From the NCBI GenBank assembly GCA_021735655.1, contig JAIPGM010000002.1:258747-322746 (forward strand): 64,000 bases of DNA. Reading direction: 5' to 3'. Each line of letters starts with the position of its first letter. Within the stretch, counting starts at the first letter, position 1. Made by a program: the position numbers and the translations under genes. The stretch comes from Candidatus Omnitrophota bacterium. GTDB lineage: Bacteria; Omnitrophota; Gorgyraeia; Duberdicusellales; 4484-171. Under the pieces are notes generated by a model. The model saw only the letters and a list, made by a program, of their open reading frames with translations. It was not told the origin of the DNA and made no database searches. Positions 8,237 to 41,940 of this stretch are shown here, one piece after another.

Positions 8237-8244
8237 CTTAAATT

Positions 8245-9896: not shown

Positions 9897-9940
9897 TTGT
9901 CTCGACGAAATTACCCCTCTAGGGATTTGGTTAAGTTACC

Positions 9941-10675
9941 TTAGACAATTATGCTCAGAATTGCTACTAAAATACAGTAATAACCAAAAATAGCAAATTT
10001 CTCAGATTTTAGCACTTTTTTGACTATTTTCAAAGCTAAAAATCCTGAAGCAAATGCGGCCACAAAACCTCCACTAGCAGCCAAAATTGACATATTTAAG
10101 TCGGGTAGCTCCTTCATTTTTAGCAAAAATGCCCCTAAGGTAACTGGGATCATCATTAAAAACGAGGTCGTAAACGCCTCTTTTGGTTTAAAACCCCTAC
10201 CGATCAATCCAACGATAGTAATCCCTGAACGAGATATCCCTGGAAATATAGCTAAGCCCTGCAATAACCCGATAAATAATGATTCTTTTGTGGTAACAGT
10301 ATCATAATTTCGCTGTCCGAAAACTTTTTTCATACTAAGCAAAATTAGACCATTTATGATGAGAAGTAAACCAATCCAAAGTTTATTTTCAAAAAAACCA
10401 ACTAAAAAAGTGTTAATAGCTAGGCCAATTATTGCAGTAACTAGGGTAGTTATCCCTAATTGAATCAAAATCCTTCTTTTAGACAAAACTGACAATATGT
10501 CTCGACGTAAAAAAATAACGACTGCCAACAAAGTTGCTAAATGAAGAAGAACAAAGAAAGGAAGTAAATTTTGGCTAAAAGACAAAAGTCTTTTTATGAT
10601 ATAAAGATGTCCGGAGCTACTTATTGGAAGGAATTCAGTTAATCCTTGAGTAATGCCCAAAGCTATGGTTTTCAC
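9941..10675 (-). CDS. uppP: Undecaprenyl-diphosphatase
   Basis: TQGLTEFLPISSSGHL signature near N-terminus, PGISRSG second motif, 8 TM segments. Confidence 0.85.
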   Translation of the reverse strand: MKTIALGITQGLTEFLPISSSGHLYIIKRLLSFSQNLLPFFVLLHLATLLAVVIFLRRDILSVLSKRRILIQLGITTLVTAIIGLAINTFLVGFFENKLWIGLLLIINGLILLSMKKVFGQRNYDTVTTKESLFIGLLQGLAIFPGISRSGITIVGLIGRGFKPKEAFTTSFLMMIPVTLGAFLLKMKELPDLNMSILAASGGFVAAFASGFLALKIVKKVLKSEKFAIFGYYCILVAILSIIV

Positions 10676-25813: not shown

Positions 25814-27310
25814 CTAGAAAAAGAGATCTCTTTCGCCTTCTTTAATCCTTCGATAATAACTCATGAATTGGTCAAAAACCTGAGGGATGTTTTTGCGGAC
25901 TTCCTCTATTTCTTTCGTGATTACTTTCTCAGCTATATTTTTAGTTTCCTCGCTGGCAAAATCATCTAACCATTCACGAAAAGTTAAAACAGCATTTAAT
26001 TTACAAAATTTACCTTCTTGACCAGTTTTAAGTAACTCCATAATGCATTCACCCGTTCTGCCGCAGCGATAACCAGCAGTACAAAAAGAACTGATTACCC
26101 CCATTGAGGCAAACTCTCTAATCATCTCATCTAGGCTACGAGTATCAGCCAAAATAAATTGCTGTCGGGGGCTGTCTTGAGTTTTACTCTGATCGCTGTA
26201 TGAACCAATTCCTATTTTGGTAGAAGCATCAGTTTGAGTTATTCCTAGCCTGATTGAATCTCTCTTCATCTGAGGGGTTTCCCGACAAGTAATAATTAGA
26301 CCAGTATGAGGCACAGCCAGTCTAAGCACAGTAATTAACTTTTTAAACTGCTGATCCGAAACCTTATATTTTAAATTATCATTAAAAGGCGTGTTTTCTG
26401 CCGGTTCAAGGCGTGGAAAAGATATCGTATGAGCTCCGACACCAAATTTATCCTCTAATTCACGATTATGCGCAACCAAGCTCATTAGCTCAAACTTCCA
26501 ATCGTAAAGCCCAAATAAAACACCCAAGCCAACATCATCAACCCCAGCCTCAAAGGCACGATGCATCGCATAAAGTCGCCAGAAGTAATTTCCTTTTATT
26601 GTAGTTGGCGGATGAATAGTTTTATAGGTGGTCTTATGGTAAGTCTCTTGGAAAACTTGATAGGTACCAATTCCGACATCTTTTAGACGACCCAATTCCT
26701 CTATCGATAAGGGCGGAGCATTCACATTTACCCGACGAATCTGACCAACGCCATTTTTGGTTTTCTCCCGAACATTATAAATAGTACGAATTGAATCAAC
26801 CATGTAATTTATATCATTCGAAGGATGCTCTCCATAAACGACAATTAAACGTTTATGACCAATCTTACCAGCCAAAACAGCGGTTTCCTTCTCAACCTGC
26901 TTTAAGCTTAAGACTCGGCGTTCACTCTTTGTGTTAGATCGTCTGAAACCACAATAAAGACAATCATTAACACAATAATTCCCAAGATAAAGCGGAGCAA
27001 AGGTGACGATTCGATTGTCATAAACCTTTCGCTTCACCCTTAAGGCGCATTCCTTCATCAATTCTAATGTTTTAGAATCAGTTACCCTTAAAAGGGTTGC
27101 CGTCTCATCAAGAGTTAAAGTTTTAATCGCTAAGGATTTATTTAAAATGTCTTCGACTTCTTTGGAATCAGGCTCCTGAGTGCATGATAATTTCGTAAAG
27201 ATTTCTTTCTGAGGAATAAAATCCTTACCCTCAATCATATAACGCTCAATTTGGTCGCGCTTTATACGTTGAGACTCCCAACTCTGAAATTTATTAGTCT
27301 TAATTAACAT
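25814..27310 (-). CDS. HydG-like radical-SAM tyrosine lyase (ThiH family with C-terminal Cys-containing extension)
   Basis: 498 aa. Radical-SAM CxxxCxxC in ThiH/HydG context (PLYLGNYCVNDCLYCGF). Too long for ThiH (~375 aa); C-terminal ~100 aa carry SFCTAGYRCGRTGEC...C, resembling the HydG C-terminal auxiliary-cluster region. Confidence 0.65.
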   Translation of the reverse strand: MLIKTNKFQSWESQRIKRDQIERYMIEGKDFIPQKEIFTKLSCTQEPDSKEVEDILNKSLAIKTLTLDETATLLRVTDSKTLELMKECALRVKRKVYDNRIVTFAPLYLGNYCVNDCLYCGFRRSNTKSERRVLSLKQVEKETAVLAGKIGHKRLIVVYGEHPSNDINYMVDSIRTIYNVREKTKNGVGQIRRVNVNAPPLSIEELGRLKDVGIGTYQVFQETYHKTTYKTIHPPTTIKGNYFWRLYAMHRAFEAGVDDVGLGVLFGLYDWKFELMSLVAHNRELEDKFGVGAHTISFPRLEPAENTPFNDNLKYKVSDQQFKKLITVLRLAVPHTGLIITCRETPQMKRDSIRLGITQTDASTKIGIGSYSDQSKTQDSPRQQFILADTRSLDEMIREFASMGVISSFCTAGYRCGRTGECIMELLKTGQEGKFCKLNAVLTFREWLDDFASEETKNIAEKVITKEIEEVRKNIPQVFDQFMSYYRRIKEGERDLFF

Positions 27311-27952
27311 CTAACTTCCCTGCTTTACAAAAAATATTAAACTCTCTAACTCACAAGCCATATCAACGTTAGAAACAAATATATTATCAGGAACTTTCAA
27401 GGCAATTGGAGCGAAGTTAAGTATTCCCTTAATATTTGAATCGATTAACTGGTTAGCTATGTCTTGAGCTACTTCAGGCGGCGTAGCTATTATTGCTATT
27501 TTTATTCCATCTTTTTTAATCATTTCACTCAAATTATCAATAGCCTGAACTACGATACCTTTTTTTGTTTTACCAATCTTTTTCTGATCATTATCAAAAA
27601 TTGCAGTAATTTTTATATTAAACTTTGAAAAACCATCGAACCCCAACAAGGCCCCACCGACTCTACCTAGGCCTACCAAAGCAATATTCCAATCAATATG
27701 GGTTCCGACTATTTTTTGGATTTGTCCAATTAAAAAATCTACGTTATAGCCCACACCGCGCTTGCCAAATTCACCAAAATAAGACAAATCCTTTCTAAAC
27801 TGAGACGGAGTTACGTTTAAAAACTTAGTTATTTTATCCGAAGAAATAACTTCAACTCCCTGCTTTTTTATTTTTCGTAAGTTACGTAAATACAGAGTAA
27901 GCCTTCTGATCGTTTCCAAAGAAAAATGTTTCTTGTCTTTACTGTTTTTCAT
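27311..27952 (-). CDS. rex: Redox-sensing transcriptional repressor Rex
   Basis: N-terminal winged-helix domain (RLTLYLRNL...) plus Rossmann NADH-binding domain (IALVGLGRVGGALL); 213 aa. Confidence 0.85.
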   Translation of the reverse strand: MKNSKDKKHFSLETIRRLTLYLRNLRKIKKQGVEVISSDKITKFLNVTPSQFRKDLSYFGEFGKRGVGYNVDFLIGQIQKIVGTHIDWNIALVGLGRVGGALLGFDGFSKFNIKITAIFDNDQKKIGKTKKGIVVQAIDNLSEMIKKDGIKIAIIATPPEVAQDIANQLIDSNIKGILNFAPIALKVPDNIFVSNVDMACELESLIFFVKQGS

Positions 27953-29270
27953 CAGATACTCTAGTATCCCGAGCTATACCTAAATCGGTAGGCGCCCGGC
28001 CTAAAGATTTAAGTAAATTAATAGTCTCAGTAATCTGATCATTAATCTCCGCTTCGCCATAGGCCTTATTAGGATAAATTGCATAATACTTTCGATATTT
28101 ACGCGGAGTTAAATTGAGCATTACCGAATTTCCACCCGAAGACAATCCTTTCTTGCGTGCCTCTAAAGATAAGGTCTCAAAGGCTGTGGTTATAAGAATT
28201 TTAGCCGCTTCTGGATCGATTAAACGAGCCAAAGCAAGGTTTTTTAAAACTTCTTCTTCAGAAGGAGCTTTGCAATTGGCCAAGAGACTATTCGGGTGAG
28301 GCAAAAATGGCCCAAATGAGTACATCTCAGAGCCCAAAGCCTTAGTTAGATAAATATCATTTATCGTATCTTGATTAGTTTGACCAGGCAAACCAATCAA
28401 GGCACCAGTCATAACTAAATACCCTAATTCATGGGCTTTTTTTAGATGATCCAGGCGACTATCTAAAGTTTGGCCAGGATGTAATTTCTCATAGATTTTA
28501 GGATTTGAAGTTTCAAAACGCATCAACAATGCTCTTGCCCCAGCCTGATAAAGCTTAAGCAATCCATCAAGCCCGACTTCACCAAAGCTTATACAAATCA
28601 AAACTGGAACCGTTTCTTTAATTTTTCTTATAATTTCCGCTAGATCATCTATGCTATAGTGTGGGTCTTCTCCCGATTGCAAAACTAAAGCCTGGAAACC
28701 ATACTCTTTAACGGCACCAACTGCCGTCTCAATGATTTCCGCCGCTGACATTCGATAACGCATAAGATTCTGGTTGTCAGCTGAAATACCACAATATTGA
28801 CAACTCTGCTTACAAAAATTAGATATTTCGATTATCCCATGAATACAACATGAATTTTTATGGTACTTTTGACGCAAAAAGTTAGCGGTTCGATAAAGAA
28901 TATCTTGAGCCTCAGGCTTATCTAACTTAAGTAAATAAAATAACTCTTCTTTACTCAATTGAATATTTTCTAAAGCTTTATCTAAAATAAGACTTAGCTG
29001 CCTGTCGATATTTTTTTTGCTAAGATCCAAGCGAGACAATCGTAAGTCCATATCCTGAAGTTCGAAAAAAAGCTCATTCCAAGCTGCCAAGGTCTCCTCA
29101 GCCTCCTTTGGGGAAACTTTTTTAATTACAAACCCGCCTTGAGCCGACACATAATCACCGGGTTTGATATCATAAAACTCATTGATTGCTTTTTTTTCTT
29201 CACCAAAGTAATCAACCAGAACGGTTTTCCCAACTATTTCTTTTACCTTGCCAGGTATTGCATAACACAT
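27939..29270 (-). CDS. HypC-domain (N-terminal) fused to HydE-like (BioB-family) radical-SAM enzyme
   Basis: From the second Met: MCYAIPGKVKEIVGKTVLVDYFGEEKKAINEFYDIKPGDYVSAQGGFVIKKVSPKEAEETLAAWNELF, the HypC/HupF signature (MC-x-A-IP...GDYVLVHVGFAI...EA.ETL). A ~40-aa linker follows, then a HydE-type radical-SAM core (IEISNFCKQSCQYCGISADN; Fe-S/SAM motifs; ~350 aa). A single uninterrupted frame of 443-447 aa. Confidence 0.7.
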   Translation of the reverse strand: MCYAIPGKVKEIVGKTVLVDYFGEEKKAINEFYDIKPGDYVSAQGGFVIKKVSPKEAEETLAAWNELFFELQDMDLRLSRLDLSKKNIDRQLSLILDKALENIQLSKEELFYLLKLDKPEAQDILYRTANFLRQKYHKNSCCIHGIIEISNFCKQSCQYCGISADNQNLMRYRMSAAEIIETAVGAVKEYGFQALVLQSGEDPHYSIDDLAEIIRKIKETVPVLICISFGEVGLDGLLKLYQAGARALLMRFETSNPKIYEKLHPGQTLDSRLDHLKKAHELGYLVMTGALIGLPGQTNQDTINDIYLTKALGSEMYSFGPFLPHPNSLLANCKAPSEEEVLKNLALARLIDPEAAKILITTAFETLSLEARKKGLSSGGNSVMLNLTPRKYRKYYAIYPNKAYGEAEINDQITETINLLKSLGRAPTDLGIARDTRVSDEKQ

Positions 29271-29284: not shown

Positions 29285-29527
29285 TTACTCTACATCAAAC
29301 GATAGCACCTGTATCACTGTTCCCGGGAAAAAAGTTAGCTCTAGCTCAGCCTTAGCACAAGGAGTCCCCTCAGCTAAAATTTTAAAGGTTTCTCTAAATG
29401 AATCCTCCTTGATCCCGTTCAGCTCACCGATTTTTATATGTATCTTAGACACTACCTTTGAGCCTTCTTTTTCAGCGTGTTCACAAATTCCTTTAATCAA
29501 TGGTTTTATGATATGGGTTTCGTGCAT
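29285..29527 (-). CDS. hypA: HypA N-terminal (nickel-binding MHE) domain protein lacking the zinc-finger domain
   Basis: Starts MHETHIIKPLIKGICEHAEKEGSKVVSKIHIKIGELNGI, matching the HypA N-domain (MHE Ni-site, ...IGELSGV...). Only 80 aa; no CxxC...CxxC zinc module. Flanking genes leave no room for it. Confidence 0.55.
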   Translation of the reverse strand: MHETHIIKPLIKGICEHAEKEGSKVVSKIHIKIGELNGIKEDSFRETFKILAEGTPCAKAELELTFFPGTVIQVLSFDVE

Positions 29528-29982
29528 GTTTTTACCTCAATAATTAAATTAGTTAATTCCTTTAATGTTTTAGCAACACTTTGTGAAATCTCATCACCAA
29601 ACTCAAGAGTTTTCGGTTGCACCCCTAAAAGAAAAATATCAGCTTCGGTTTCTTTACCCAAAAAATCTAAAAACATCCTTGGTGATAAATCATGAGTAGT
29701 GAATCCCGATTTCACGATATCTTCCTTAACTAAAATCTCATAATCTCCTGGCTCTTTACCAAGATCAACAACATCAACTATTAAAATCGTATTTGGACGT
29801 TCTTTGGTTATTTTGCCAATATAGTTTTCTGGTGCTGAACCAACATCAATACAGGTTGCATCCACTTTCTGGTAAACAGTCTCAATGAACTTAGGACCGA
29901 AAGCATCGTCACCACGCATAATATTTCCTACCCCAACGATAACGACTTTCCCTTTAAAAACATTCCGAAAAATATTATTCAT
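29506..29982 (-). CDS. hycI: [NiFe]-hydrogenase maturation endopeptidase (HycI/HyaD family)
   Basis: VVIVGVGNIMRGDDAFGPKF...DVGSAPENYIG...ILIVDVVD motifs of hydrogenase C-terminal-processing proteases; 158 aa. Confidence 0.8.
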   Translation of the reverse strand: MNNIFRNVFKGKVVIVGVGNIMRGDDAFGPKFIETVYQKVDATCIDVGSAPENYIGKITKERPNTILIVDVVDLGKEPGDYEILVKEDIVKSGFTTHDLSPRMFLDFLGKETEADIFLLGVQPKTLEFGDEISQSVAKTLKELTNLIIEVKTCTKPIS

Positions 29983-30022: not shown

Positions 30023-30634
30023 TTACTCAGCAGTAAGGGTGGTTTCACGTCGACAGCGGGCGCATAGAATCTTAACTCGATCAGAACGCCCATCATCCCT
30101 TAAAGCTGAAACAATATTTTCATCTACAATACCAAGACTTTTAAGATGGGAAAGATAAAGCGTAGGACTTGAGTAGGTAAGCTCACCTAATTTTTGAGAA
30201 ATCCATTTAAGGTGATCTTTGCAGGCTATTACATCGCCGCAAACTTCACAAAGTTGTAGTTCTTTTTCTATTTGTTCTTGGGCTTGAGCGCGGTCAAAAA
30301 ATGATAACTCCCAATCAGTAGATAACTTAATACCTTGCTTATCAGCCAAACAGGCTGCTTCACACTGTCCACAAAAAATACAAGTATCAGTATAATGAAT
30401 CATCAGCCGCTTAGGATCATCTTTATTTTCAGTAATATCCTTATGAGAAATCGCTTCAACTGGGCAAACCTCTTCACAACCGCAACAACCAACACATTTT
30501 TGATCATTAAACTTCGGCTGACCGCGAAAGTTAGGATGAGCCACATGGGCCTCTTTAGGGAACTTTGACGTGTAAGGCCCCTTAATCAATGCCTTGATTG
30601 CTTCAACCAACTCTCTTAATTTTGGCAACTTCAT
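30023..30634 (-). CDS. NuoI/MbhN/HycF-like 2x[4Fe-4S] ferredoxin subunit with C-terminal Cys-rich extension
   Basis: CVGCCGCEEVCP and CIFCGQCEAACL cluster motifs in NuoI arrangement, plus extra CEVCGDVIAC and CARCRRE motifs. Confidence 0.6.
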   Translation of the reverse strand: MKLPKLRELVEAIKALIKGPYTSKFPKEAHVAHPNFRGQPKFNDQKCVGCCGCEEVCPVEAISHKDITENKDDPKRLMIHYTDTCIFCGQCEAACLADKQGIKLSTDWELSFFDRAQAQEQIEKELQLCEVCGDVIACKDHLKWISQKLGELTYSSPTLYLSHLKSLGIVDENIVSALRDDGRSDRVKILCARCRRETTLTAE

Positions 30635-30652
30635 AAATTTATCTTAAAAAAG

Positions 30653-30727
30653 AAGCGTAAAACGTAGTCTAGACTCAATATTCTTGAATCACCCGTGGCT
30701 AAAACTTTTCGTCTACGTTTACGCTTC
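30653..30727 (-). repeat. Intra-operon long-stem inverted repeat (15-16 bp arms, ~44-nt loop) between mrpG-like and nuoI-like genes
   Basis: GAAGCGTAAAACGTAG at 30653-30668 and its complement CTACGTTTACGCTTC at 30713-30727; the right arm overlaps the last codons of the mrpG-like ORF. Confidence 0.35.
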
Positions 30728-31057
30728 TCCTTCCTTATCCTCTTTATATTTATCAATTACACTACCTTCCCAAAGTTTAACCCCGGCCCGATGGGCTCCT
30801 CTGGCTACAGCATGGGCAGCTACCGGCGAGGTTAACAAAAGAAAAACCGCACAAAGAAGCGCCTTAAAGCCCGCGGCAATAAAGCCAACAATTAAAAATG
30901 TTCCAAAAAGAATACTACAAGTTCCTAAAGTAACACACTTGGTGGCTGCTTGAAGACGATTATATACATCCGGAAGTCTTACCAAACCTAAGCAACCAAC
31001 TATATCAAAAGCTAACCCACCGGAAATGAATATCAAACCAATAATATCACTCATCAA
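30719..31057 (-). CDS. Mrp antiporter subunit G-like (MbhC-like) membrane subunit
   Basis: RLPDVYNRLQAATKCVTLG...TSPVAAHAVARGA matches the MrpG/PhaG signature; 3 TM. Confidence 0.6.
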   Translation of the reverse strand: MMSDIIGLIFISGGLAFDIVGCLGLVRLPDVYNRLQAATKCVTLGTCSILFGTFLIVGFIAAGFKALLCAVFLLLTSPVAAHAVARGAHRAGVKLWEGSVIDKYKEDKEGEA

Positions 31058-31442
31058 ACCCTCTTCCCTCTAAATATTTCGAAAGAGCTAAGGTGCTAAT
31101 AAAACTTTGAAGCGCCCAAGCAATTCCAATATCCAGATACCAAGATCTTCCAGTCGAAATAGTTAAAACTGCACAAAGCCCCACAATCATAATCCCTAAA
31201 ATATCAATCGCTACAATTCTGTCGGCTCCGGTAGGACCTTTAGCAATACGATAAAGCGCCAGTACACATCCTAGAATTAGAATGTAAAGTGCCCTCCCAA
31301 CAAGACCACTATAGACGAGATTTTCAGGAAAAAGAAAACCAAAAGGCCTAAAAATAATTAAGCCTAAAACAATACTAAGGGTAGTTGCTCCAAACAGCCA
31401 ATTTAACATCTTTTTGCTTTCAGCTTTTTTCTTTTTAGCCAT
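31047..31442 (-). CDS. Mrp antiporter subunit F-like (MbhB-like) membrane subunit
   Basis: YRIAKGPTGADRIVAIDIL motif typical of MrpF/PhaF. Confidence 0.55.
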   Translation of the reverse strand: MAKKKKAESKKMLNWLFGATTLSIVLGLIIFRPFGFLFPENLVYSGLVGRALYILILGCVLALYRIAKGPTGADRIVAIDILGIMIVGLCAVLTISTGRSWYLDIGIAWALQSFISTLALSKYLEGRGFDE

Positions 31443-31447
31443 AGTAA

Positions 31448-31945
31448 TTATTCAAATATTTTTCTTAATATTTTCTCAAACCGCTCAATAATAACTTTGG
31501 TAGCAGCTTCAGTCTGAGTTTCCTTCACGTCAATCCAATGTACATATAAAACACCATCATCCTTGTCAATATCTACAGTTAAAGTTCCTGGAGTAAGTGT
31601 TATTGAATTCGCTAAAAATGTAAGCGCTGTATCTGTCTTAAGCGTAGTTTTCACCTTAACAATGCCAGGTTTTATCGGTAAATTAGGATGTAGAATCCTG
31701 TAGGCAACATCAATATTTGCTTTAAAACACTCCCATAGAAATCTCGGAAGATAATAAACAAAAAAATACCAGTATCTCAAAGGGTGCTTAAGGACATGAG
31801 GACGTTTTACAAACAAATCTCCGGTTAAAAAAGCACAAAGAGCGGCTGCGAATACACCAATAGCTAGATGCTGCCAATCCGGTACCCAGTTCAATAAGCA
31901 CCATACAACAAAGGCAACTAAAAATAAAACTATTTTTCTTTTCAT
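31448..31945 (-). CDS. Mrp antiporter subunit E-like (MbhA-like)
   Basis: 165 aa with two N-terminal TM helices and soluble C-terminus; position and size match MrpE. Confidence 0.45.
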   Translation of the reverse strand: MKRKIVLFLVAFVVWCLLNWVPDWQHLAIGVFAAALCAFLTGDLFVKRPHVLKHPLRYWYFFVYYLPRFLWECFKANIDVAYRILHPNLPIKPGIVKVKTTLKTDTALTFLANSITLTPGTLTVDIDKDDGVLYVHWIDVKETQTEAATKVIIERFEKILRKIFE

Positions 31946-33441
31946 TGGACTGCTCTGATAATATTTATTGTGTAGTTTTTTGTGCCAAGCAAAACCCCAG
32001 AGGCTTTAAGCAGGAATTGTTCTCTTATCCCCGGAAAAAATAAAAACCCACCTAAAAGGCAAACTAAAACTAAGATAATCATCGAAGCCTTCATGAAAGC
32101 AGGCACTTCAGTAATATTTTCCCACTGTTTCCTAAGATTTCCAAAAAATGCATACTTCATAACCTTGGTAAAAGAAGCAAGGGTCAAAATACTAGCCAAC
32201 ACTGCCCAAAAACCATACCAATACTGGTTGGCCTGAACACAAGCAATAATAATAATTAACTTGCTCCAAAAACCATTAAACGGCGGAATTCCAGCGATTG
32301 ACATAGAAGCTCCAAAAGCAGTAGCTGAGGTAACTGGCATTCTTTGACTTAATCCCCCCATTTTTTTTAAATCTCTGGTTCCGGTTGTGTATTCAACAGC
32401 ACCAGAATTTAAAAAAAGAAGAGATTTGAATATTGAGTGATTGAACAAATGGAATAAGCCTCCGATTATACCTAAAGGAGTGCCCAAACCTATCCCCAAA
32501 ATAACATAACCAATCTGGCTTATTGAATGATAGGCAAGCAAACGTTTCAAATCCCACTGTCCGATAGCCAAAAATACACCAACCACCATTGAGAGCGCAC
32601 CGAGCGCCATCAAAATCATTGAAAGCTGACTATTCACACCTAAAATATTAAAGAATATACGGCAAAGAGTGTATACTCCTAATGATTTAATCAATACCCC
32701 AGAAAGCATAGCTGATATTGGAGCTGGTGCTGAAGGATGAGCATCAGGAAGCCAGGCATGAAACGGCACCAAAGCTGCTTTTAAACCAAAACCCATAAGA
32801 AACAATACACTTACTAATATTAAAACATTTGGGCAGTCGGCTTGAGACAAAACTAAACCCATATCAGCCATATTTAGGGTTGAAGTGCAACTATATAGAA
32901 ATACAATACCTAAAAGAATAAATAATGACCCTACGGTACTCATCAGGGCATATTTAAAGGCGGCTTCAAGCTCATGGCGTTCAGTTCCAAAAGCAACCAG
33001 AGCATAACTAGCAACAGAGGCAATCTCTAAAAAAACAAAAAGGTTAAATATGTCGCCAGTTATCAAAACCCCGTTCATCCCTCCCAACATCAATAGAAAT
33101 AAGGTGTAAAATTTCCATTTAGCGGTGAACTTTTCCATGTAGTTAATTGAAAAAAGAGCTACACAAAAAGCAACTAAATTAACCGTAACTAACATAAAAC
33201 TAGTTAGACCGTCTAAGACAAAAGTTATCCCGATTGGCGGCTTCCAAGATCCAGCAGCATAAACCAACACTCCATGCTCAGCCACAAGTTTTACACTGTA
33301 AAGCGACAAAAATAAAAGAGCTGTTGTGCATAAATTACCAATTAAATCCGGCAGCCATTTACTTTTTTTACCAAACAAAACAGTTAAAAAGGCACCCGAA
33401 AGACAAACTACAACAAAAATTGGTATAATATTAGAACTCAT
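31942..33441 (-). CDS. MrpD/NuoN-like proton-pumping antiporter subunit
   Basis: 499 aa, ~14 TM, conserved antiporter-fold motifs (…AHSSISQIGYV…, NSGAVEY). Confidence 0.75.
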   Translation of the reverse strand: MSSNIIPIFVVVCLSGAFLTVLFGKKSKWLPDLIGNLCTTALLFLSLYSVKLVAEHGVLVYAAGSWKPPIGITFVLDGLTSFMLVTVNLVAFCVALFSINYMEKFTAKWKFYTLFLLMLGGMNGVLITGDIFNLFVFLEIASVASYALVAFGTERHELEAAFKYALMSTVGSLFILLGIVFLYSCTSTLNMADMGLVLSQADCPNVLILVSVLFLMGFGLKAALVPFHAWLPDAHPSAPAPISAMLSGVLIKSLGVYTLCRIFFNILGVNSQLSMILMALGALSMVVGVFLAIGQWDLKRLLAYHSISQIGYVILGIGLGTPLGIIGGLFHLFNHSIFKSLLFLNSGAVEYTTGTRDLKKMGGLSQRMPVTSATAFGASMSIAGIPPFNGFWSKLIIIIACVQANQYWYGFWAVLASILTLASFTKVMKYAFFGNLRKQWENITEVPAFMKASMIILVLVCLLGGFLFFPGIREQFLLKASGVLLGTKNYTINIIRAVQ

Positions 33442-33443
33442 AT

Positions 33444-33779
33444 CTATCCCCGCAACTCTCTAATTTTAGTAATATCAAATGTTTGATACTTTTCATAAAT
33501 TCGCATAGCGATTGCAATAAGCAAAGCTGTTGATGCCAAACCAATAACAATTGAAGTCAAAACTACTGCCTGAGGTAAGGCATCGACCATATTATTAATT
33601 GTTGTGTCTGGTGAATATATCGGAGAACGCCCCTTTATCCGATAAGCAACTAAGATAAATAAAAGATTTACTGCATATTCAGCGATGATAACACCAATAA
33701 TAATCTTAATTATATTACGTTTACGTAAAATACAATAAAGACCAACACAAAAAAGCACCAAACAAAGCAAGTAGATCAT
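33444..33779 (-). CDS. MrpC/NuoK-like small membrane subunit
   Basis: 111 aa, 3 TM, NuoK-like size and hydrophobicity. Confidence 0.55.
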   Translation of the reverse strand: MIYLLCLVLFCVGLYCILRKRNIIKIIIGVIIAEYAVNLLFILVAYRIKGRSPIYSPDTTINNMVDALPQAVVLTSIVIGLASTALLIAIAMRIYEKYQTFDITKIRELRG

Positions 33780-34231
33780 TTTCCTTCGGTTCCTCCATCA
33801 AATTTAAGCAAAGTAAGGGCAATAAATATAGCAAACAAACCGGCCCCGACCTTTAAACTAATTGCAATATTACAAAGTGGAATAATCCCAGCTGAAAAAA
33901 GTCTAAACGGCTCCCCCTTAGGAAGAAAGTTTAAAAAGAAATACCCACCAGTAAACCCCAAAAGGGCAATTGCTAAAAACATTATTGCTCCAAAACCTTC
34001 AAAAAAAGAAATAGCTTTCTTAGGCATTCTTTTTAAAGCCGCGTCTTTACCATAAGCAAGCATTAAATGAATAAAGCTGAGTGCAATAATTACCCCTCCG
34101 GCAAATCCTCCACCGGGGGAAACATGACCATGAGAAAGAATATAAATACCAAAAAGAAGTATTATGCCCACGGTAAGACGAGTAATTGTCTTAACGATTA
34201 CCGACATTCCCTTTTCATGCTCTTTGCTCAT
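33776..34231 (-). CDS. MrpB-like (MbhF/G-like) membrane subunit
   Basis: 151 aa, 4 TM; position between MrpA-like and MrpC-like genes. Confidence 0.4.
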   Translation of the reverse strand: MSKEHEKGMSVIVKTITRLTVGIILLFGIYILSHGHVSPGGGFAGGVIIALSFIHLMLAYGKDAALKRMPKKAISFFEGFGAIMFLAIALLGFTGGYFFLNFLPKGEPFRLFSAGIIPLCNIAISLKVGAGLFAIFIALTLLKFDGGTEGK

Positions 34232-34780
34232 TTATTCATCCTCTGGGTCTACTTTCTCATTAATTTTTTTACGCCCGACCCTGCGCACTAGGGTTAAAAC
34301 ACCTATTACTGCGGTAAATAAAACTGTAGCTTCACCTAAGGTGTCATAGGCTCGATAATCAAGAATAACTGAAGCAACAATATTAGTTGCTCCGGTCTTA
34401 GCTAAGCCTTGCTTAAGATAAGTATCGGCCACCCGCATAATTGGATAACCAAAACGTGGCAAATCACCAATTGCCTTATAGGCTGCAAATAAAAATAAAC
34501 TAACAAAGCCTAAAATAATTGAGGTATTAAGTAACCATCGACCACTAGTTGAAAAAGGTAAATCTTTTTTTAAAGTTGCCCGAATCAAAATGATTAAACA
34601 TAATATCTCAACTACTAATTGAGTAATTGCAACATCGGGAGCTTTGAGAATAATAAACGTTATCGAAAGCCCTAGCCCTACGGCACCGACGGCAATAACT
34701 GAGGAAAGCAGATCTTTAAGCTCAACGGCGACAATTGCCCCAACAATCATAAAAATTAATAAAATATATAGCTCAAACAT
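34232..34780 (-). CDS. Mbh-type small membrane subunit (MbhD/E-like)
   Basis: 182 aa polytopic membrane protein directly downstream of the MrpA-like gene. Confidence 0.4.
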   Translation of the reverse strand: MFELYILLIFMIVGAIVAVELKDLLSSVIAVGAVGLGLSITFIILKAPDVAITQLVVEILCLIILIRATLKKDLPFSTSGRWLLNTSIILGFVSLFLFAAYKAIGDLPRFGYPIMRVADTYLKQGLAKTGATNIVASVILDYRAYDTLGEATVLFTAVIGVLTLVRRVGRKKINEKVDPEDE

Positions 34781-34787
34781 ATTTAAG

Positions 34788-36446
34788 TTACTTTAAAAGT
34801 ATATAAAAAAGTATCCCCATACCTAAAAGACACCAGGACAAATAAGTAGATAAAATGCCATTATGCAAATAACGCAAAATACTGTTAAAGCCAAAAGTAA
34901 TTTTACTACCGACTTCATAAATATCGAATAATTTCTTATTAGCTAAACTATAGATAACCTTTAACAGGCCCAACTCTTTGATTGTGTTATAAAAATCAGT
35001 TCCTGAAACTCTCATCTCGGGATATTTTTCAGTGCTTTCTCCGCCCATAAAAATATTAACCTGGCGACTCTTTGAAACTGTGCCCAAAAGATAAACTATT
35101 AGACCAATGACCATGCCAGCAAGAATCAAAGCCGTAGCTAAACTTGCATTCCAGACTCCGGAAAACTCTACTGGCTGCCAAATAACCGGAAAGATAAAAA
35201 ACTTAAGCGGAAGCCGGTAAGCAAATACACCAAAAACTACACATAGTAAGGCTAAAATTGCTCCCGGTATCCACATCGCTAGCCCAACCTCTTTTTTCTG
35301 ATCTTTACTGAGTGCTTTTACGGTTGTGCTTTCTTGACCCAAAAATACAGCATGAACAAGTTTCATGAAACTTGCCAAAGTTAAGGCACTTCCAAACATG
35401 GCTGAAACTAACCAAACGACCCATAACCCACCACTGTTTTTAGCCGTCTCAATGATACCCTGGTAGATCATCCATTTAGAAACAAAACCATTAAATGGCG
35501 GAACCCCAGAGATAGCAAATGAAGCAATCAAAAAAGTAATAAAAGTAATCGGCATATATTTAGCAAGACCGCCAAGTTTATCTAAATTAGTAGTTTTGGT
35601 CCTTTTTTCTACAGAGCCACTGGTTAAAAATAAACAAGACTTATAAATCGCATTATTCAGCATATGAAATAGTCCACCGGCAATACCGATAATTGTACCC
35701 GTACCAATACCTAAAATCATATAACCAACTTGACTTACCGCATGATAACCAAGGAGTCTCTTTAAGTCATGTTGGACTAAAGCCATCATAACCGCAGCTA
35801 TAATAGTAAAGCTACCGATAAACATCAAAAATGTATTCATGCTTAAACCTAAACGAAACATTTCCAAGGAAATTCTAATTAAAAGATATATTCCCAAAAG
35901 TTTGTCCAAAGAAGCAGGCAAATAAGCCGCAACCGGAGTTGGTGAGTCTTCAGCTGCGTCAGGAACCCAGGTATGAAAAGGCATAGCCCCGGCTTTAGCA
36001 AAAGCTCCGACCGCCAAACAAAGATAGGCAAAAGTAGCCACCTTAGAAGTCAATGGTATTGATATTAAATCCATCTCGAATAAACCGGTAAGTTTCCAAA
36101 TTAAGGCAACTCCCAAAAGCATTAAAGCATCGGTTCCACCAATTATAATAAATGCTTTCTTTGCCGTAGCTGAGCTATTATCCTTTTTACCAAAGCCAAT
36201 TAAAAGATAAAGAAGCAACCCCAAGAATCCCCAGAAAACCATGAACAGAATTAAATTATTGGCAAAAACCACACCCAAAGAAGCAATCAAAGTAAAAAAG
36301 ATATAAAGGTAGTAACGTGAAATTCCACGTTGGGCACGCATGTACCCCATCGAATATACAGTTACCAAAATAGAAAAAAACCAAATAAATATTCCGACAA
36401 ATATCGACAAAGCATCAAATCTAAAATAATTCGCTAAAAAATTCAT
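34788..36446 (-). CDS. MrpA/NuoL-like antiporter subunit (MbhH-like)
   Basis: 552 aa, ~16 TM, NuoL/MrpA family motifs (…HAVSQVGYMILGIG…, WVPDA). Confidence 0.75.
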   Translation of the reverse strand: MNFLANYFRFDALSIFVGIFIWFFSILVTVYSMGYMRAQRGISRYYLYIFFTLIASLGVVFANNLILFMVFWGFLGLLLYLLIGFGKKDNSSATAKKAFIIIGGTDALMLLGVALIWKLTGLFEMDLISIPLTSKVATFAYLCLAVGAFAKAGAMPFHTWVPDAAEDSPTPVAAYLPASLDKLLGIYLLIRISLEMFRLGLSMNTFLMFIGSFTIIAAVMMALVQHDLKRLLGYHAVSQVGYMILGIGTGTIIGIAGGLFHMLNNAIYKSCLFLTSGSVEKRTKTTNLDKLGGLAKYMPITFITFLIASFAISGVPPFNGFVSKWMIYQGIIETAKNSGGLWVVWLVSAMFGSALTLASFMKLVHAVFLGQESTTVKALSKDQKKEVGLAMWIPGAILALLCVVFGVFAYRLPLKFFIFPVIWQPVEFSGVWNASLATALILAGMVIGLIVYLLGTVSKSRQVNIFMGGESTEKYPEMRVSGTDFYNTIKELGLLKVIYSLANKKLFDIYEVGSKITFGFNSILRYLHNGILSTYLSWCLLGMGILFYILLK

Positions 36447-37630
36447 TTTATGCCTAGTTTACTTTTTATCTTTTCGGTTTTACTTTGTGAAAGGCGAACT
36501 AAATCCTCACCGTTATATATTTTTTTACCCTTAGTGTTACGTACCGCCACTCTCTCAGTACAACAATAACAAGGATCAATGGACGCTAAAATTATCGTTG
36601 CATCAGAAATCGTCTCGCCAACCACAGTTGCCTTATAGGTCGGTAAATTCATAAAAGTAGGTGCTCTTACTTTGTGACGAGCCGGTCGATTGGTCCCATC
36701 GCTTTTCACATAATGAAAACATTCACCCCGCGGCGCCTCAATATGACCGATACCTTCACCTGAAGGAATACTTTTAATCTTAGCATCAATTTCTGTATCC
36801 GGAAGGTTTAAAAGGCAATACTTAACCATATCTATCGATTCAAAAGTCTCTAAAATTCTTACTACCGCTTTATCGAAAACATCGCCATTTTTAGTCACAA
36901 TCATATTCCAGTTAAACTGATCATATGCCCCATAAGGAGAATTTTTACGTAGATCTCTGGCCACCCCCGAAGCCCGAGATACCGGACCGAGAGCACAAAA
37001 GTTAATTGCCTCATCCTTAGTGAGGATACCTATTCCTTTAGTCCTAGCATGTAACACCGGGTCATCGATTACTGCCTTTTTAAGCATTTCAAGAGTCGGG
37101 ATAATCGAATCTATCTTTTTTATCGCAAAAGGTATATCTTCTTTTTTTATGTCTCGCCGAACCCCTCCCGGCTTAAACATAGCATAGTTGTTGCGATTTC
37201 CCGAAAGTGCCTCCATAACATCAAGGATTTCCTCACGCAACTTCCAAGCCCACATATAAACAGTATTGTAACCTAAAAAATGTCCGGCAAGACCCAACCA
37301 TAAAAGATGTGAATGAATACGTTCTCCCTCAGCGATAATTGTTCGGATATATTTAGCCCTCATTGGCACTTCTAGAGGGATAACATCCTCAACTGCCCGA
37401 GTATAAGCATAAGGATGACTGGTTGAACAAATACCACAGATTCTCTCAATTACAAAAGTAGATTGGTCGAAGGTTTTTCGCTCAGAAAGCTTTTCAATGC
37501 CGCGATGGTTATAACCAATCTGAACATCGATATCAACAACTGTCTCCCCATCTACAGTTAAGCTGAAAAACTCAGGCTCTTCCTGTAAAGGGTGATATGG
37601 TCCGATTGGAACTATAGTTCGTTTTCCCAT
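36443..37630 (-). CDS. [NiFe]-hydrogenase large (catalytic) subunit, group 4 (Mbh/Ech type)
   Basis: N-terminal L1 motif ERICGICSTSH (RxCGxCxxxH) and C-terminal L2 motif DPCYCCTER (DPCxxCxxR), followed by a ~35-aa extension of the kind removed by HycI-type proteases; NuoD-like fold, 395 aa. Confidence 0.85.
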   Translation of the reverse strand: MGKRTIVPIGPYHPLQEEPEFFSLTVDGETVVDIDVQIGYNHRGIEKLSERKTFDQSTFVIERICGICSTSHPYAYTRAVEDVIPLEVPMRAKYIRTIIAEGERIHSHLLWLGLAGHFLGYNTVYMWAWKLREEILDVMEALSGNRNNYAMFKPGGVRRDIKKEDIPFAIKKIDSIIPTLEMLKKAVIDDPVLHARTKGIGILTKDEAINFCALGPVSRASGVARDLRKNSPYGAYDQFNWNMIVTKNGDVFDKAVVRILETFESIDMVKYCLLNLPDTEIDAKIKSIPSGEGIGHIEAPRGECFHYVKSDGTNRPARHKVRAPTFMNLPTYKATVVGETISDATIILASIDPCYCCTERVAVRNTKGKKIYNGEDLVRLSQSKTEKIKSKLGIK

Positions 37631-38103
37631 TATAATCCTCGATCTCTAATTGATGAGTCGTCCCACTCTTGATAATCGCGTCTCAAAGGATATACACCTT
37701 GTGGCCACTCATCGGGCAAAAGCAACCGCTTCAACTCTGGATGACCGCGAAAATTGACTCCTAACATTTCAGCTATCTCACGTTCAATCCAATTAGCACC
37801 TTCAAATATTGGGGCTAATGAATCTATTTCTAATTTGCTCTTATCCAACTTAACCCGGAAAGAAACTACTAAATTTATATCTTCAAAGGTAAAATGATAA
37901 AGAATTTCTATATGTTTAAATGTATCTACTCCCGAAGCAATATTGAATCTGGCCCCCAAATTTTTAAAAACATAGGTCGCAACCTTAACAATCGCCTGAG
38001 GTTTAATCTCAATATAGACCCGAGTTAAGGTCTTATCGAAAATATCTAAAATATCTTCGTCGAATCTTTTCTTTAAATCTTTAATAACTTCGCTTCTGGT
38101 CAT
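37630..38103 (-). CDS. NuoC/MbhK-like hydrogenase subunit
   Basis: 157 aa with NuoC-like (30 kDa subunit) core motif (FEGANWIEREIAEMLGVNFRGHP). Confidence 0.7.
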   Translation of the reverse strand: MTRSEVIKDLKKRFDEDILDIFDKTLTRVYIEIKPQAIVKVATYVFKNLGARFNIASGVDTFKHIEILYHFTFEDINLVVSFRVKLDKSKLEIDSLAPIFEGANWIEREIAEMLGVNFRGHPELKRLLLPDEWPQGVYPLRRDYQEWDDSSIRDRGL

Positions 38104-38540
38104 TTTGCTTGAGGGTTTCCAGCCCCACTTAATTTATCGATTAACTTAACAACCCCGGCAATAATCGCCTCTGGTTTCGGCGGGCACCCAGGTATATATA
38201 CGTCTACCGGAATAATTTTATCAACTGGCAAAGGACAGTTATAGCTATGAATAAACATACCTCGCGACAAAGAGCACTCACCAACAGCCACTACTACACA
38301 AGGCTTCGGCATCTGCTCATATACTTCTTTAATCCGAGGAATGCACTTTCGATTAGCAGAACCAGTTACTAAAAGCACGTCAGCATGTTTTATGCTTCCG
38401 GCTAAAAGCATGCCAAACCTTTCGATATCAAAGCGTGGGGTTAAACAATCCAATATTTCAATATCGCAATTATTGCAACTACCAGTTGAAAGATGAAAAA
38501 CCCATGGTGACTTGAGTAATGCTTTAAGTTTTATGCTCAT
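38100..38540 (-). CDS. [NiFe]-hydrogenase small subunit (NuoB/MbhJ-like, proximal [4Fe-4S])
   Basis: CNNC...GxCxxxG...PGCPP motifs (STGSCNNCDIE, VAVGECS, YIPGCPPKPE). Likely true start is the internal Met (MSIKLK...), avoiding overlap with the upstream gene. Confidence 0.8.
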   Translation of the reverse strand: MSIKLKALLKSPWVFHLSTGSCNNCDIEILDCLTPRFDIERFGMLLAGSIKHADVLLVTGSANRKCIPRIKEVYEQMPKPCVVVAVGECSLSRGMFIHSYNCPLPVDKIIPVDVYIPGCPPKPEAIIAGVVKLIDKLSGAGNPQAK

Positions 38541-39460
38541 AAACCCTTTAAGGCTAAAATAACTGCGATTATAGCAATAATCAACATTGGCCCCCAAAAA
38601 AATCTTATTGCCTGATCAATTCTAACTCTAGGATTAGTATTACGAATAACGGTGATCAAGGCAACCAAACCAACATACCTCAACACCCCGTATATAAGAT
38701 TTAAGCCGTTTAGTCTTAACCCACCAATAAAAGTAATCATTATAAAGAAAGGCAAGACAAAGAACAACATATTTTTCATAAGTTTGTATACCGCAAGCGG
38801 GGCTCCCGAATACTCAACTAACGGTCCACCAATAATTTCGGTCTCAGCTTCAGGAATATCAAAAGGCACTAAGGCTAGTTTTGCCTGTACACACATAATA
38901 ATTACAATAAAAGCCAAAAACCCCGACCAGCTTCCTAAGATTACGCCATTTTGAGCCTGATAAGTGATAATTTCACCTAAACGCAAGCTAAACCCGCTTT
39001 GAATAACCGGAACTAAAACCGCTAGAATAAATGGCAATTCATAACTTAAAACTAATTTCATTTCTCGTGATGCACCAATACTAGCTAAAGGATTGCCTGA
39101 AGCAAAGCCTCCGATAATTATGCTTATTGAAGGAATAGCCAATAAATAAACTACAACAACAATATCACCAACAAAGGTCCTCAGCGGATTAAAATTATTA
39201 AACCAAAGCACCGTAGACACAACAATAACACTCCCTAAACCAATAATCGGAGCGCTCAAAAAACTAAACTGAGAAGCGCCTTTAGGAACCAAAGTCTCTT
39301 TTCCAAGAAGCTTCACCAAATCAATAAGCGGCTGTAGGATTGGCGGCCCAACGCGATACTGAACTCGAGCGGTAACTTTACGGTCAACCCAGCTAGTTAA
39401 CAAACCAATAATGGCGGTTAACAAGAATCCGAAAATAAAAAGATAAACTAAATAAATCAT
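38537..39460 (-). CDS. NuoH/MbhM/HycD-like membrane subunit
   Basis: 307 aa, 8 TM, NuoH-like loops (…GGPLVEYSGAPLA…, EAETEIIGG). Confidence 0.75.
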   Translation of the reverse strand: MIYLVYLFIFGFLLTAIIGLLTSWVDRKVTARVQYRVGPPILQPLIDLVKLLGKETLVPKGASQFSFLSAPIIGLGSVIVVSTVLWFNNFNPLRTFVGDIVVVVYLLAIPSISIIIGGFASGNPLASIGASREMKLVLSYELPFILAVLVPVIQSGFSLRLGEIITYQAQNGVILGSWSGFLAFIVIIMCVQAKLALVPFDIPEAETEIIGGPLVEYSGAPLAVYKLMKNMLFFVLPFFIMITFIGGLRLNGLNLIYGVLRYVGLVALITVIRNTNPRVRIDQAIRFFWGPMLIIAIIAVILALKGL

Positions 39461-40023
39461 ACTTTTTCTCTATCCCAATGAGTAGAATGTACTATTAAAT
39501 TGTCACCAACTAAAAATGAATCTTTGGTTAATAAATCATCCGAATTTACTAATTTTAATGCTCCGTATGGGCATGATTTTATGCAAAGCGGTTCATTTTT
39601 TTTATCTCTTCGATCAAAACAAAAATCACAATTATGAATTAAATAAGGCACATGCTCAGGATAAATGGTTCCGTAAGGGCAAGCATGAGAACAAGTTTTG
39701 CAACTTACGCAACGCATATTATGCCTAATCAAAAGGTTGTCTTTTTCGGTTTGTTGTTCCAAAGCCTCAAATGGGCAAGCATTAACACAGTGAGGTTCTT
39801 GGCATCTACGACAAACCAAAGCATAAGTTGCCAATTCAGCTACTGAAACTATTCCATTATTTATCGGATCTTGAGTGTGGTAAAAATAGCTGCACTCTAA
39901 CTTACATTTTTTGCATTCTCCGGCCGCACAAATATCAAGATCAACAAAAAGCCGTTGACCACTATCAGATTTAGCTTCGGTATTTAATTTTCCTTGATGT
40001 AGTTGTTCGGCACTTGTATCCAT
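39457..40023 (-). CDS. Polyferredoxin (HycB/CooF-like, multiple [4Fe-4S] clusters)
   Basis: At least four Cys clusters of CxxCxxCxxxCP type (CRRCQEPHCVNACP, CVSCKTCSHACP, CDFCFD...CIKSCP). Confidence 0.65.
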   Translation of the reverse strand: MDTSAEQLHQGKLNTEAKSDSGQRLFVDLDICAAGECKKCKLECSYFYHTQDPINNGIVSVAELATYALVCRRCQEPHCVNACPFEALEQQTEKDNLLIRHNMRCVSCKTCSHACPYGTIYPEHVPYLIHNCDFCFDRRDKKNEPLCIKSCPYGALKLVNSDDLLTKDSFLVGDNLIVHSTHWDREKV

Positions 40024-40030
40024 AATAGCT

Positions 40031-40855
40031 CTAATCCCAAATATTAGGAAAATTCTTTATTTTGTCGTAAGTAAACACTGGTCCATCTTTGCAGGCATAA
40101 TAAGTCCCTAGCCGACAATGACCGCATTTACCAATTCCACAAGACATATTTTTTTCCATTGAAAGATAGATATTCTTCTCCTTAAAACCCAACTCAAGCA
40201 ATTTTTTAGTAGAAAACTTCATGGCGATTGGCGGCCCGCAAACAATAGCTATTGCCTCAGGGCAATTCATATCTAAATCATCCAAAATTGTAGTAACAAC
40301 ACCTACGTTACCTTTCCAATCAGGGCTAGCTTTATCAACAGTAAGTCTTAAATTTAAATCATCTCGCTTTGCCCAGCCGGCTATCTCAGTTTTATAGAGT
40401 AGCTCCTGTGAGGTTTTACAGCCACCCCGAAAAGACAGCTTCTTAAACTCCCCGCTTCGGGCAAAAAACTCATACATCAAACTACGCAAAGGAGCAAATC
40501 CACATCCACCACCGACGACAACGATTTCCTTACCTTTAAATTCATCAATCGGGTAACCAGTCCCAAAAGGGCCTCTCACTCCAATCAAATCGCCTTTTTT
40601 AAGCTGATGAACTTTATCGGTAACCTTGCCAACTTTCATTACCGTGACTTCCATTACATCTCTCACTGATGGCCTCGATGAAGGTGTAAATGGCGCCTCA
40701 CCCACGCCGGGAACAGTTAATTCGATAAATTGACCGGTCTCAAAACCCAAAGGCTCTTTAGGACGAAAACGTATGGTTTTAATCGTTGGCGTTTCGGTTA
40801 TTACATCAAGAACTTCGGCCTCAATCGATCTGTAAGGATTCTCGATTTTATGCAT
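40031..40855 (-). CDS. FAD/NAD(P)H-binding oxidoreductase, hydrogenase/sulfite-reductase gamma-subunit-like (PyrK/AsrB fold) with C-terminal [2Fe-2S] motif
   Basis: FNR-like domains (RFRPKEPLGFETGQFIEL; GPFGTGYP; VVVGGGCGFAPLRS) and C-terminal CGIGKCGHCRLG 2Fe-2S motif. Confidence 0.65.
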   Translation of the reverse strand: MHKIENPYRSIEAEVLDVITETPTIKTIRFRPKEPLGFETGQFIELTVPGVGEAPFTPSSRPSVRDVMEVTVMKVGKVTDKVHQLKKGDLIGVRGPFGTGYPIDEFKGKEIVVVGGGCGFAPLRSLMYEFFARSGEFKKLSFRGGCKTSQELLYKTEIAGWAKRDDLNLRLTVDKASPDWKGNVGVVTTILDDLDMNCPEAIAIVCGPPIAMKFSTKKLLELGFKEKNIYLSMEKNMSCGIGKCGHCRLGTYYACKDGPVFTYDKIKNFPNIWD

Positions 40856-41919: not shown

Positions 41920-41940
41920 TTTGTGATTTTATTCACAAAG
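41920..41940. promoter_or_regulatory. Perfect TGTGA-N6-TCACA palindrome (Rex/CRP-type operator) upstream of the hydrogenase operon
   Basis: cTTTGTGAttttatTCACAAAg, an 8-bp perfect inverted repeat ~50 nt upstream of the first operon gene. It matches the Rex box consensus TTGTGAA-N4-TTCACAA, and Rex is encoded inside the operon. Confidence 0.5.

Follow-up and report, generated by a model that had tools for sequence, protein, structure and literature searches.

We describe here the open reading frame (ORF) at 25814-27310 of a 64-kb stretch of DNA from a Candidatus Omnitrophota bacterium (64,000 nucleotides of contig JAIPGM010000002.1, called the window below). With high confidence, its product is a true HydG, a tyrosine lyase of the radical-SAM family with an auxiliary [4Fe-4S] domain at its C-terminus, and it belongs to a subfamily in which the middle cysteine of the auxiliary-cluster motif is displaced by three residues. 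The gene is the last one of an operon for a group 4 [NiFe] hydrogenase, in which it follows a gene for a fusion of HypC with a HydE-like enzyme. HydG and this fusion stand in conserved positions at the end of [NiFe] operons; this hints, though it is no proof, that enzymes of the [FeFe] type are used by some bacteria to make the [NiFe] cofactor.

The ORF at 25814-27310 encodes a HydG

The ORF (498 amino acids, aa) lies on the minus strand with bounds at exactly 25814 and 27310, and the plus strand of this region is riddled with stop codons. Its product matched both PF04055 and PF06968, and the translation contained the radical-SAM cluster motif C113-x3-C117-x2-C120 (26951..26974, minus strand) in a ThiH-like TIM barrel, as is found in HydG. 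The three cysteines were kept in all of the 145 sequences of the variant group described below and in 49-50 of 51 canonical HydGs. The HydG equivalog model TIGR03955 gave 448.5 bits against a cut-off of 312.15 and was covered from position 7 to position 469 of 470. The ThiH model gave 246 bits, far under its cut-off of 380.

An earlier note on this DNA, made from the letters alone, had proposed HydG because of the length of 498 aa and a C-terminal extension, and had named as the refuting case an extension unrelated to HydG in a protein that groups with ThiH, CofH or NosL. Alignment against the solved HydGs and ThiH upheld the proposal. In a search of the PDB, the HydG of Thermoanaerobacter italicus (4wcx) matched with an E value of 4e-128 over residues 26-498, that is, to the last residue and through the whole C-terminal domain, and the HydG of Carboxydothermus hydrogenoformans (4RTB) matched at 4e-95; the match to ThiH ended at residue 396. 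The AlphaFold2 (AF2) model of the protein had a predicted local distance difference test score (pLDDT) of 90 and a predicted template-modelling (TM) score of 0.91. When it was compared with chain A of 4wcx by Foldseek, the TM scores were 0.88 and 0.96 with a root-mean-square deviation of 1.7 A over 472 columns, and about 397 columns could be aligned with ThiH. Thus the protein resembles the solved HydGs in homology and fold over its full length (46% identity, TM 0.96), in the CX3CX2C site, in two conserved histidines and in having three C-terminal cysteines over the same 27-residue span. With ThiH, the 2-iminoacetate synthase, it shares the tyrosine-lyase radical-SAM barrel and the BATS domain, whereas ThiH lacks the C-terminal cluster domain, roughly 90 aa long, that is homologous in this protein and the solved HydGs. 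The model scores and this domain exclude ThiH, NosL or CofH as the identity of the protein.

A displaced cysteine in the auxiliary-cluster motif

The C-terminal segment of the protein reads SFC410-TAG413-YRC416-GRTGEC422-IMELLKTGQEGKFC436, and the motif from C410 to C436 is encoded at 26003..26083 (minus strand). The spacing C-x5-C-x5-C-x13-C given in the earlier note is exact in the translation. In the HMMER alignment of the query with 4wcx, SYCTACYRMGRTGDRFM...NFC was paired with SFCTAGYRCGRTGECIM...KFC, so that the first and the last cysteine of the CX2CX22C motif of HydG are in register with 4wcx. Because the alignment is residue by residue, Gly413 can be placed at the position of the middle cysteine of CX2CX22C, as the earlier note had remarked; the additional cysteines, Cys416 and Cys422, stand 3 and 9 residues after the lost one. 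The protein therefore lacks the canonical CX2CX22C but still has three cysteines within the same span, C410-x5-C416-x19-C436.

This arrangement is a property of a whole group of proteins. In a joint alignment, C410, G413, C416 and C436 were each 100% conserved among 145 variant sequences and C422 was present in 90%, whereas in 51 canonical HydGs position 413 was always Cys and positions 416 and 422 never were. The variant sequences formed a monophyletic group in a neighbour-joining tree. FCTAGYRC was found in all of the nearest 120 database clusters (64-80% identity), which come mostly from metagenome-assembled genomes (MAGs) of Omnitrophota. When species-representative genomes were scanned, CT[AS]GYRC was carried by each locus of 55% identity or more and the canonical C..CYR by each locus of 49% or less; the loci of the first kind came from Omnitrophota, Phycisphaerae, Kiritimatiellia/Lentisphaerae/Verrucomicrobia and two Archaeoglobaceae MAGs. 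Besides the displaced cysteine with its invariant Gly at the old site and the extra C422, about ten other changes, mainly in the C-terminal domain and in the strand that reads GITQTDAS instead of GISQISAG, distinguish the clade from the solved HydGs. H281 and H294, which are candidate ligands of the dangler Fe and candidates for the His265 of the literature, were conserved at 100% in the variant clade and at 96% or more in canonical HydGs.

The number of ligands, the total span and both candidate dangler-Fe histidines are thus kept in the subfamily. The simplest reading of these sequences is a compensated migration of one ligand from i+3 to i+6 (CX2CX22C to CX5CX19C) within the same span, in which Gly would make room at the old site. 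Outside the N-terminus, the altered loop (residues 412-417) was the one place where the pLDDT of the AF2 model dropped under 50, and the model is therefore silent on how Cys416 reaches the cluster.

A third HydG-like type was also seen. Protein P0123 (497 aa, 45% identical to the query, representative of a 50%-identity cluster) reads FCTAGYREGRTG...LC; its middle-Cys position is taken by Gly and no other Cys compensates, which leaves only two obvious motif ligands.

The variant motif and the product of HydG

The earlier note had suggested a divergent HydG with an altered cysteine region that might deliver a different Fe-carbonyl/cyanide product. Its first part was correct, since the protein is a HydG with a truly non-canonical motif, but the second part found no support in the genes around its relatives. 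In loci L008-L013, HydGs with CT[AS]GYRC lie inside complete classical [FeFe] clusters composed of a histidine kinase, NuoE/F-like subunits, HydA (PF02906 and a small-subunit domain), a TM1266-like protein, an aspartase-like lyase, HydF, HydG and unfused HydE. Unfused HydEs from related loci (Omnitrophota and Phycisphaerae MAGs) passed TIGR03956 at 305-337 bits. The variant motif was also found in protein P0051 of Ca. Gygaella obscura, a MAG for which a group A3 [FeFe] hydrogenase is the only hydrogenase reported (PMC8542988); the supplements of that paper contain no Hyp or HydG entries. Because the same subfamily occupies classical HydA/HydE/HydF clusters, the motif is no sign of a new product. 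Nor can it serve as a marker of a [NiFe] context, as canonical CX2CX22C HydGs also adjoin the HypC::HydE-like fusion and the [NiFe]-linked module is not tied to the variant motif. These data suggest that a different destination of the product, if any, is indicated by the gene neighbourhood and not by the motif.

Some members of the subfamily have other surroundings. In L015-L023, L051 and L066 (Kiritimatiellia, Lentisphaerae and Verrucomicrobia MAGs), the variant HydG stands by itself: up to 10 kb away there was neither a hydrogenase nor a maturase gene, and genes for a membrane transporter, an SDR and a VIT/rubrerythrin protein were among its neighbours. In two Archaeoglobaceae MAGs (L014 at 6367-9911, and L018), it adjoins a 642-aa [FeFe] hydrogenase of group A type that has TSCSPGW instead of TSCCPxW. 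Most archaeal genomes encoding an [FeFe] hydrogenase were reported to lack the HydEFG maturases (PMC11216029). Directly after HydG, a small conserved ORF of 82-89 aa with the motif AEI(H/I)GKRWSY occurs in bacteria and archaea (L008 at 11580-11849, L014 at 9886-10146, and L018); it had no match in Pfam or NCBIfam.

A HypC domain fused to a HydE-like radical-SAM enzyme

The fusion gene occupies 27939..29270 on the minus strand and encodes 443 aa counted from MCYAIPGKV, in which an N-terminal HypC domain of some 75 aa is joined by a linker to a HydE-like radical-SAM domain. TIGR00074 (HypC) matched residues 5-80 of the longer ORF that begins with TTG. The radical-SAM domain aligned end to end with the HydE of Thermotoga maritima (TmHydE, E 4e-64) and far more poorly with PylB (1e-30) and also with BioB, and the fusion scored 248.9 with the HydE model TIGR03956, just under the cut-off of 254.6. 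The N-terminus matched the HypC of Thermococcus kodakarensis at 1e-10, and the domain matched 2z1c at E 5e-12. The architecture PF01455 plus PF04055 was present in at least 118 of the nearest 120 fusion clusters, and those that are named belong nearly all to Omnitrophota.

When the fused radical-SAM domains were compared with unfused HydEs, they were monophyletic, with 64% identity within the clade and 39% to unfused HydEs, which are 46% identical among themselves. In L092, L107, L119 and L123 the fusion occurred together with an unfused HydE. The fused domain is a HydE paralog of its own. Thus, the fusion resembles HydE (for instance, T. maritima structures 7O1O and 8QMK with bound complex B) along the whole radical-SAM alignment, but it differs from HydE in its N-terminal HypC domain, in forming a clade of its own, in its score below the cut-off and in its co-occurrence, in some genomes, with a normal HydE.

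We made a similar comparison with HypC/HybG/HupF. The start MCYAIPG, which includes Cys2, was invariant in 117 fusions, and the domain therefore has both the N-terminal Met-Cys and the OB fold of HypC; like HypC, its gene is also found after those of HycI and HypA in [NiFe] operons. However, residue 44 of the fusion is an invariant Gln, where all four solved HypCs carry His (H51 in E. coli), and the HypC domain is covalently joined to a radical-SAM enzyme. The HypC His, together with Cys2 of HypC and Cys41 of HypD, has been proposed to hold Fe on the HypCD complex (PMC12134894). For the N-terminal domain of the fusion, this conserved His is missing and no HypD signature was seen in 1.08 Mb of flanking sequence; the domain looks independent of HypD.

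Recurrence of the module in other genomes

We collected 89 fusion loci from genomes and metagenomes, 1.08 Mb in total, with flanks of up to +/-10 kb. A [NiFe] large subunit or Mrp genes lay upstream in 34 of 35 loci that had at least 9 kb of upstream sequence, and the upstream hydrogenase was either of the 4g/Mrp type (about 8.3 kb upstream) or of a 3b-like soluble type (about 2 kb upstream). Among the 20 loci flanked by 9 kb or more on either side, [NiFe] genes were present in 20, HydG in 14, and HydF, HydA and unfused HydE in 2 each; 11 of the 20 had [NiFe] and HydG without HydF, HydA or unfused HydE. The HydG start was less than 1 kb from the stop of the fusion gene in 24 of 52 loci. Conserved neighbours in the 40 loci that were 12 kb or longer were the large subunit (35), HycI (33), HydG (24), Rex (23) and an 80-aa HypA (22), and no other conserved unknown family was found in the neighbourhood. 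The HydGs beside the fusion were of three lineages, the variant CTAGYRC at 19 loci and two canonical types at 21 loci. In the complete 1.275-Mb genome CP070684.1 (L001), the 80-aa HypA, the fusion and HydG make up a compact group, separated by gaps of just 7 and 2 nucleotides and away from any hydrogenase gene.

HypD, HypE and HypF were searched for by their signatures. None of GPGCPVC and GFETT (which we take to mark HypD), PRIC-stop (HypE) or the double zinc finger (presumably diagnostic of HypF) was seen in the 1.08 Mb of the 89 fusion loci, and in this the loci differ from the HypC/HybG/HupF pathway. The PRIC signature of HypE is confirmed by published work (PMC12130793). Contigs of equal size shared between the lists of the best 120 matches numbered 16 for HydG and the fusion, 3-4 for HydG and HydF and 0 for the fusion and HydF, which is weak evidence because these lists are truncated.

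One locus allowed a comparison at an orthologous site. In L008 (Omnitrophota), the order downstream of HydG is the same as in the window (AKR, epimerase, orf122, SNase, GlyRS and PPDK, 53-75% identity) and HydG is 65% identical to that of the window, but upstream there is HydA-TM1266-HydF and not the [NiFe]/HypA/fusion cassette. HydG is thus retained at this site whichever hydrogenase is present. Williams et al. reported one hydrogenase type per Omnitrophota MAG of Ace Lake, with group 4g as the sole type in some of them, from two genera (PMC8542988). In L072 (5235-5519) and six other loci of the 3b type, a 94-aa HypA-like ORF with a weak match to PF01155 precedes the ShyB-like gene of the [NiFe] operon.

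The [NiFe] hydrogenase operon of the window

The operon lies entirely on the minus strand, from 41873 down to 25814, with genes that overlap or abut. It begins with genes for ShyB/AsrA-like, ShyC/AsrB-like (FAD/NAD), polyferredoxin, NuoH-like, NuoB-like small and NuoC-like subunits in this order (37630..41873). These are followed by the large subunit of a group 4 [NiFe] hydrogenase (36443..37630), which has the motifs RICGICSTSH and DPCYCCTER and a 33-aa C-terminal extension. Between the large subunit and HycI, at 30023..36446, there are a NuoI-like 2x[4Fe-4S] subunit and eight Mrp/Mbh membrane subunits that make up an Mrp-type antiporter module (MrpG, F, E, D, C, B, MbhD/E-like and NuoL/MrpA-like). 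The two CxxC pairs (RxCGxCxxxH and DPCxxCxxR), the C-terminal extension, HycI, and the Mrp and NuoB/C/H/I-like subunits together identify a membrane-bound [NiFe] hydrogenase of group 4.

Next in the operon is HycI, the endopeptidase that acts on the C-terminus of the large subunit (29506..29982; TIGR00142, 113.7 bits), and then a miniature HypA of 80 aa (29285..29527), which matched positions 1-68 of the 116 positions of TIGR00100. The N-terminal MHE nickel motif is present in this HypA, but the zinc-finger domain (CxxC...CxxC) is missing; HypA is likewise 80 aa long in L001, L003, L071 and L073, and no HypB was seen near the 80-aa HypA. After the fusion gene comes the gene for the redox-sensing repressor Rex (27311..27952; NF003995, 257.6 bits), whose stop abuts the start codon of HydG. 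A perfect Rex-box palindrome, TTGTGATTTTATTCACAA, is located at 41921..41938, 48 nucleotides upstream of the first gene of the operon. It was the sole match in the window, and at least one match occurred in 13 of 100 shuffles. The operon downstream of the Rex box thus itself contains rex. A scan for promoters and terminators returned counts equal to the shuffled expectation.

No HydA, HydF, HypB, HypD, HypE or HypF was found among the scanned ORFs of the 64 kb, a set that comprised every ORF of the operon region and, outside it, the larger ones. HydE is present in the window only as the fusion to HypC. The locus therefore differs from a classical HydG system such as L008-L013, where HydG has HydE, HydF and an [FeFe] hydrogenase as partners; here its partners are HypA, the HypC::HydE-like fusion, HycI and a [NiFe] hydrogenase.

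Two other ORFs of the window were also noted. The one after HydG (24718-25716, minus strand) encodes a protein like peptidase M29/NicX, and the TTG listed as its start probably lies too far upstream; synteny of this ORF extends to L003 and L004, but it lies outside the conserved module. The ORF at 4184-7393 (minus strand) encodes an EF-G-like protein of 1069 aa. Its GTPase domain starts only at residue 382, so the protein has an N-terminal extension of about 380 aa, which had no Pfam match.

A possible role in [NiFe] maturation, and its alternatives

Taken together, these data led us to propose that, in this and many related genomes, HydG with the HypC::HydE-like fusion supplies an Fe-CO/CN unit to the [NiFe] hydrogenase, a proposal to which we assign a probability of about one half. 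By analogy with known HydGs, HydG would cleave tyrosine to CO and CN- and assemble Fe(Cys)(CO)x(CN)y on the dangler Fe. In this genome the Fe unit would bypass HydF and HydA and might be taken up by the HydE-like domain of the fusion, much as T. maritima HydE binds complex B. The HypC domain, through Cys2, could then capture the processed Fe-CO/CN fragment and insert it into the large subunit of the group 4g [NiFe] hydrogenase, so that HypC would replace HydF as the carrier. Mini-HypA would add Ni and HycI would trim the C-terminus of the large subunit. HydG, the fusion, HypA and HycI would be co-transcribed with the hydrogenase under the control of Rex. The steps of tyrosine cleavage, synthon formation, HydE-like processing, capture by Cys2 and insertion are inferred from the published chemistry of HydG and HydE (PMC10114646, PMC8162317). 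A broader proposal, which we hold only tentatively, is that in Omnitrophota, and perhaps in other anaerobes too, the Fe(CN)2(CO) part of the [NiFe] site could be made without HypD, HypE and HypF: HydG would produce both CO and CN- from tyrosine, a dedicated HydE paralog would process the Fe synthon and the fused HypC domain would deliver the product to the large subunit.

Several observations weigh against the proposed role. The [NiFe] site requires Fe(CO)(CN)2, whereas the known product of HydG is Fe(CO)2(CN) (PMC10114646). HydG was not within 10 kb in 6 of the 20 well-flanked fusion loci, and the search for HypD, HypE and HypF was made with sequence signatures and no positive control. The remaining observations are also what one would expect if an ordinary [FeFe] maturase were parked beside a [NiFe] operon, with co-location under Rex, with HydA, HydF and HypDEF encoded elsewhere and with a neutral or bifunctional fusion of two genes that had been neighbours. 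The absence of HypD/E/F, HydF and HydA covers flanks of +/-10 kb, and these genes or an [FeFe] hydrogenase may lie in other parts of the genomes. An [FeFe] hydrogenase or HydF was also present in fusion loci L072, L092, L100, L104, L107 and L123, and in L072, L100, L104 and L107 the [NiFe] and [FeFe] hydrogenases stand side by side with the fusion between them. In L113, L116 and L119 the fusion is surrounded by a cluster of [FeFe] maturation genes, and the short flanks available there contain no [NiFe] gene. In addition, HydGs of the fusion context and of the HydF context are interleaved in the tree, so that no [NiFe]-specific divergence is seen in HydG itself, and the variant HydG occurs in the complete [FeFe] clusters of L008-L013.

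We nevertheless regard the parked [FeFe] maturase, the main rival to our proposal, as somewhat less likely than the proposal. The fusion is found together with an unfused HydE that scores above the model cut-off, so it is not the cell's HydE; its radical-SAM domain is a distinct and old paralog. HydF adjoins HydG in classical loci, yet it was missing from 18 of the 20 well-flanked fusion loci. In the complete genome of L001, HypA, the fusion and HydG have stayed side by side and no [FeFe] gene is close to them, the HypC domain of the fusion lacks the His used in HypCD, and Omnitrophota MAGs were reported with one hydrogenase type each.

It is also conceivable, though improbable, that CO is the only ligand supplied by HydG and the fusion, which would pass it to a normal HypCDEF pathway with its genes elsewhere. 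Where anaerobes obtain the CO has been called the most pressing open question, to which more than one route may be the answer (PMC12134894), HydG is a proven generator of CO, and the module is tightly linked to [NiFe] operons. However, no signature of HypD, HypE or HypF was found near any of the 89 fusion loci, HypC is fused to a radical-SAM enzyme instead of adjoining HypD and lacks His51, and HydG unavoidably yields CN- as well.

A degenerate auxiliary cluster in a protein that acts as a ThiH-like 2-iminoacetate synthase, or in another role outside hydrogenases, is very unlikely. Many homologs are labelled '2-iminoacetate synthase' by JGI, the Kiritimatiellia and Lentisphaerae members have no nearby hydrogenase gene, and P0123 shows that Gly can occur without a compensating Cys. 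On the other hand, the three cysteines are invariant in 145 sequences, the C-terminal domain is conserved throughout and confidently folded, the ThiH model scores far under its cut-off and there are no thiamine genes near the locus. Finally, a sequencing or assembly error, for which a single base change (TGT to GGT) would suffice, can be dismissed, as can chance, because the Cys/Gly pattern is identical in 145 independent and related sequences from many assemblies and Gly is always paired with Cys416.

Significance

Although CX2CX22C has been treated as defining for HydG, a whole subfamily has CX5CX19C, indicating that HydG tolerates the relocation of one ligand of the auxiliary cluster. Motif-based annotation and mechanistic models of the dangler Fe should therefore allow for CX5CX19C, also in members that belong to classical [FeFe] clusters.

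A review of the [NiFe] cofactor describes six Hyp proteins and an unresolved anaerobic source of CO, with no mention of HydG or radical-SAM enzymes (PMC12134894), and in a 2024 survey of archaeal hydrogenases HydEFG appear solely as maturases of the [FeFe] type. Targeted literature searches, in which subscription papers were incompletely covered, found no description of a CX5C HydG subfamily, of a HypC::HydE fusion or of the module that contains it. The module of HycI, mini-HypA, the HypC::HydE-like fusion and HydG, which is found with two groups of [NiFe] hydrogenases and usually without HydF and HydA, is thus a candidate for an alternative, tyrosine-derived route. If this is true, the [NiFe] cofactor could be reached by a second path that relies on radical-SAM enzymes, and an anaerobic source of the CO ligand would have been identified.

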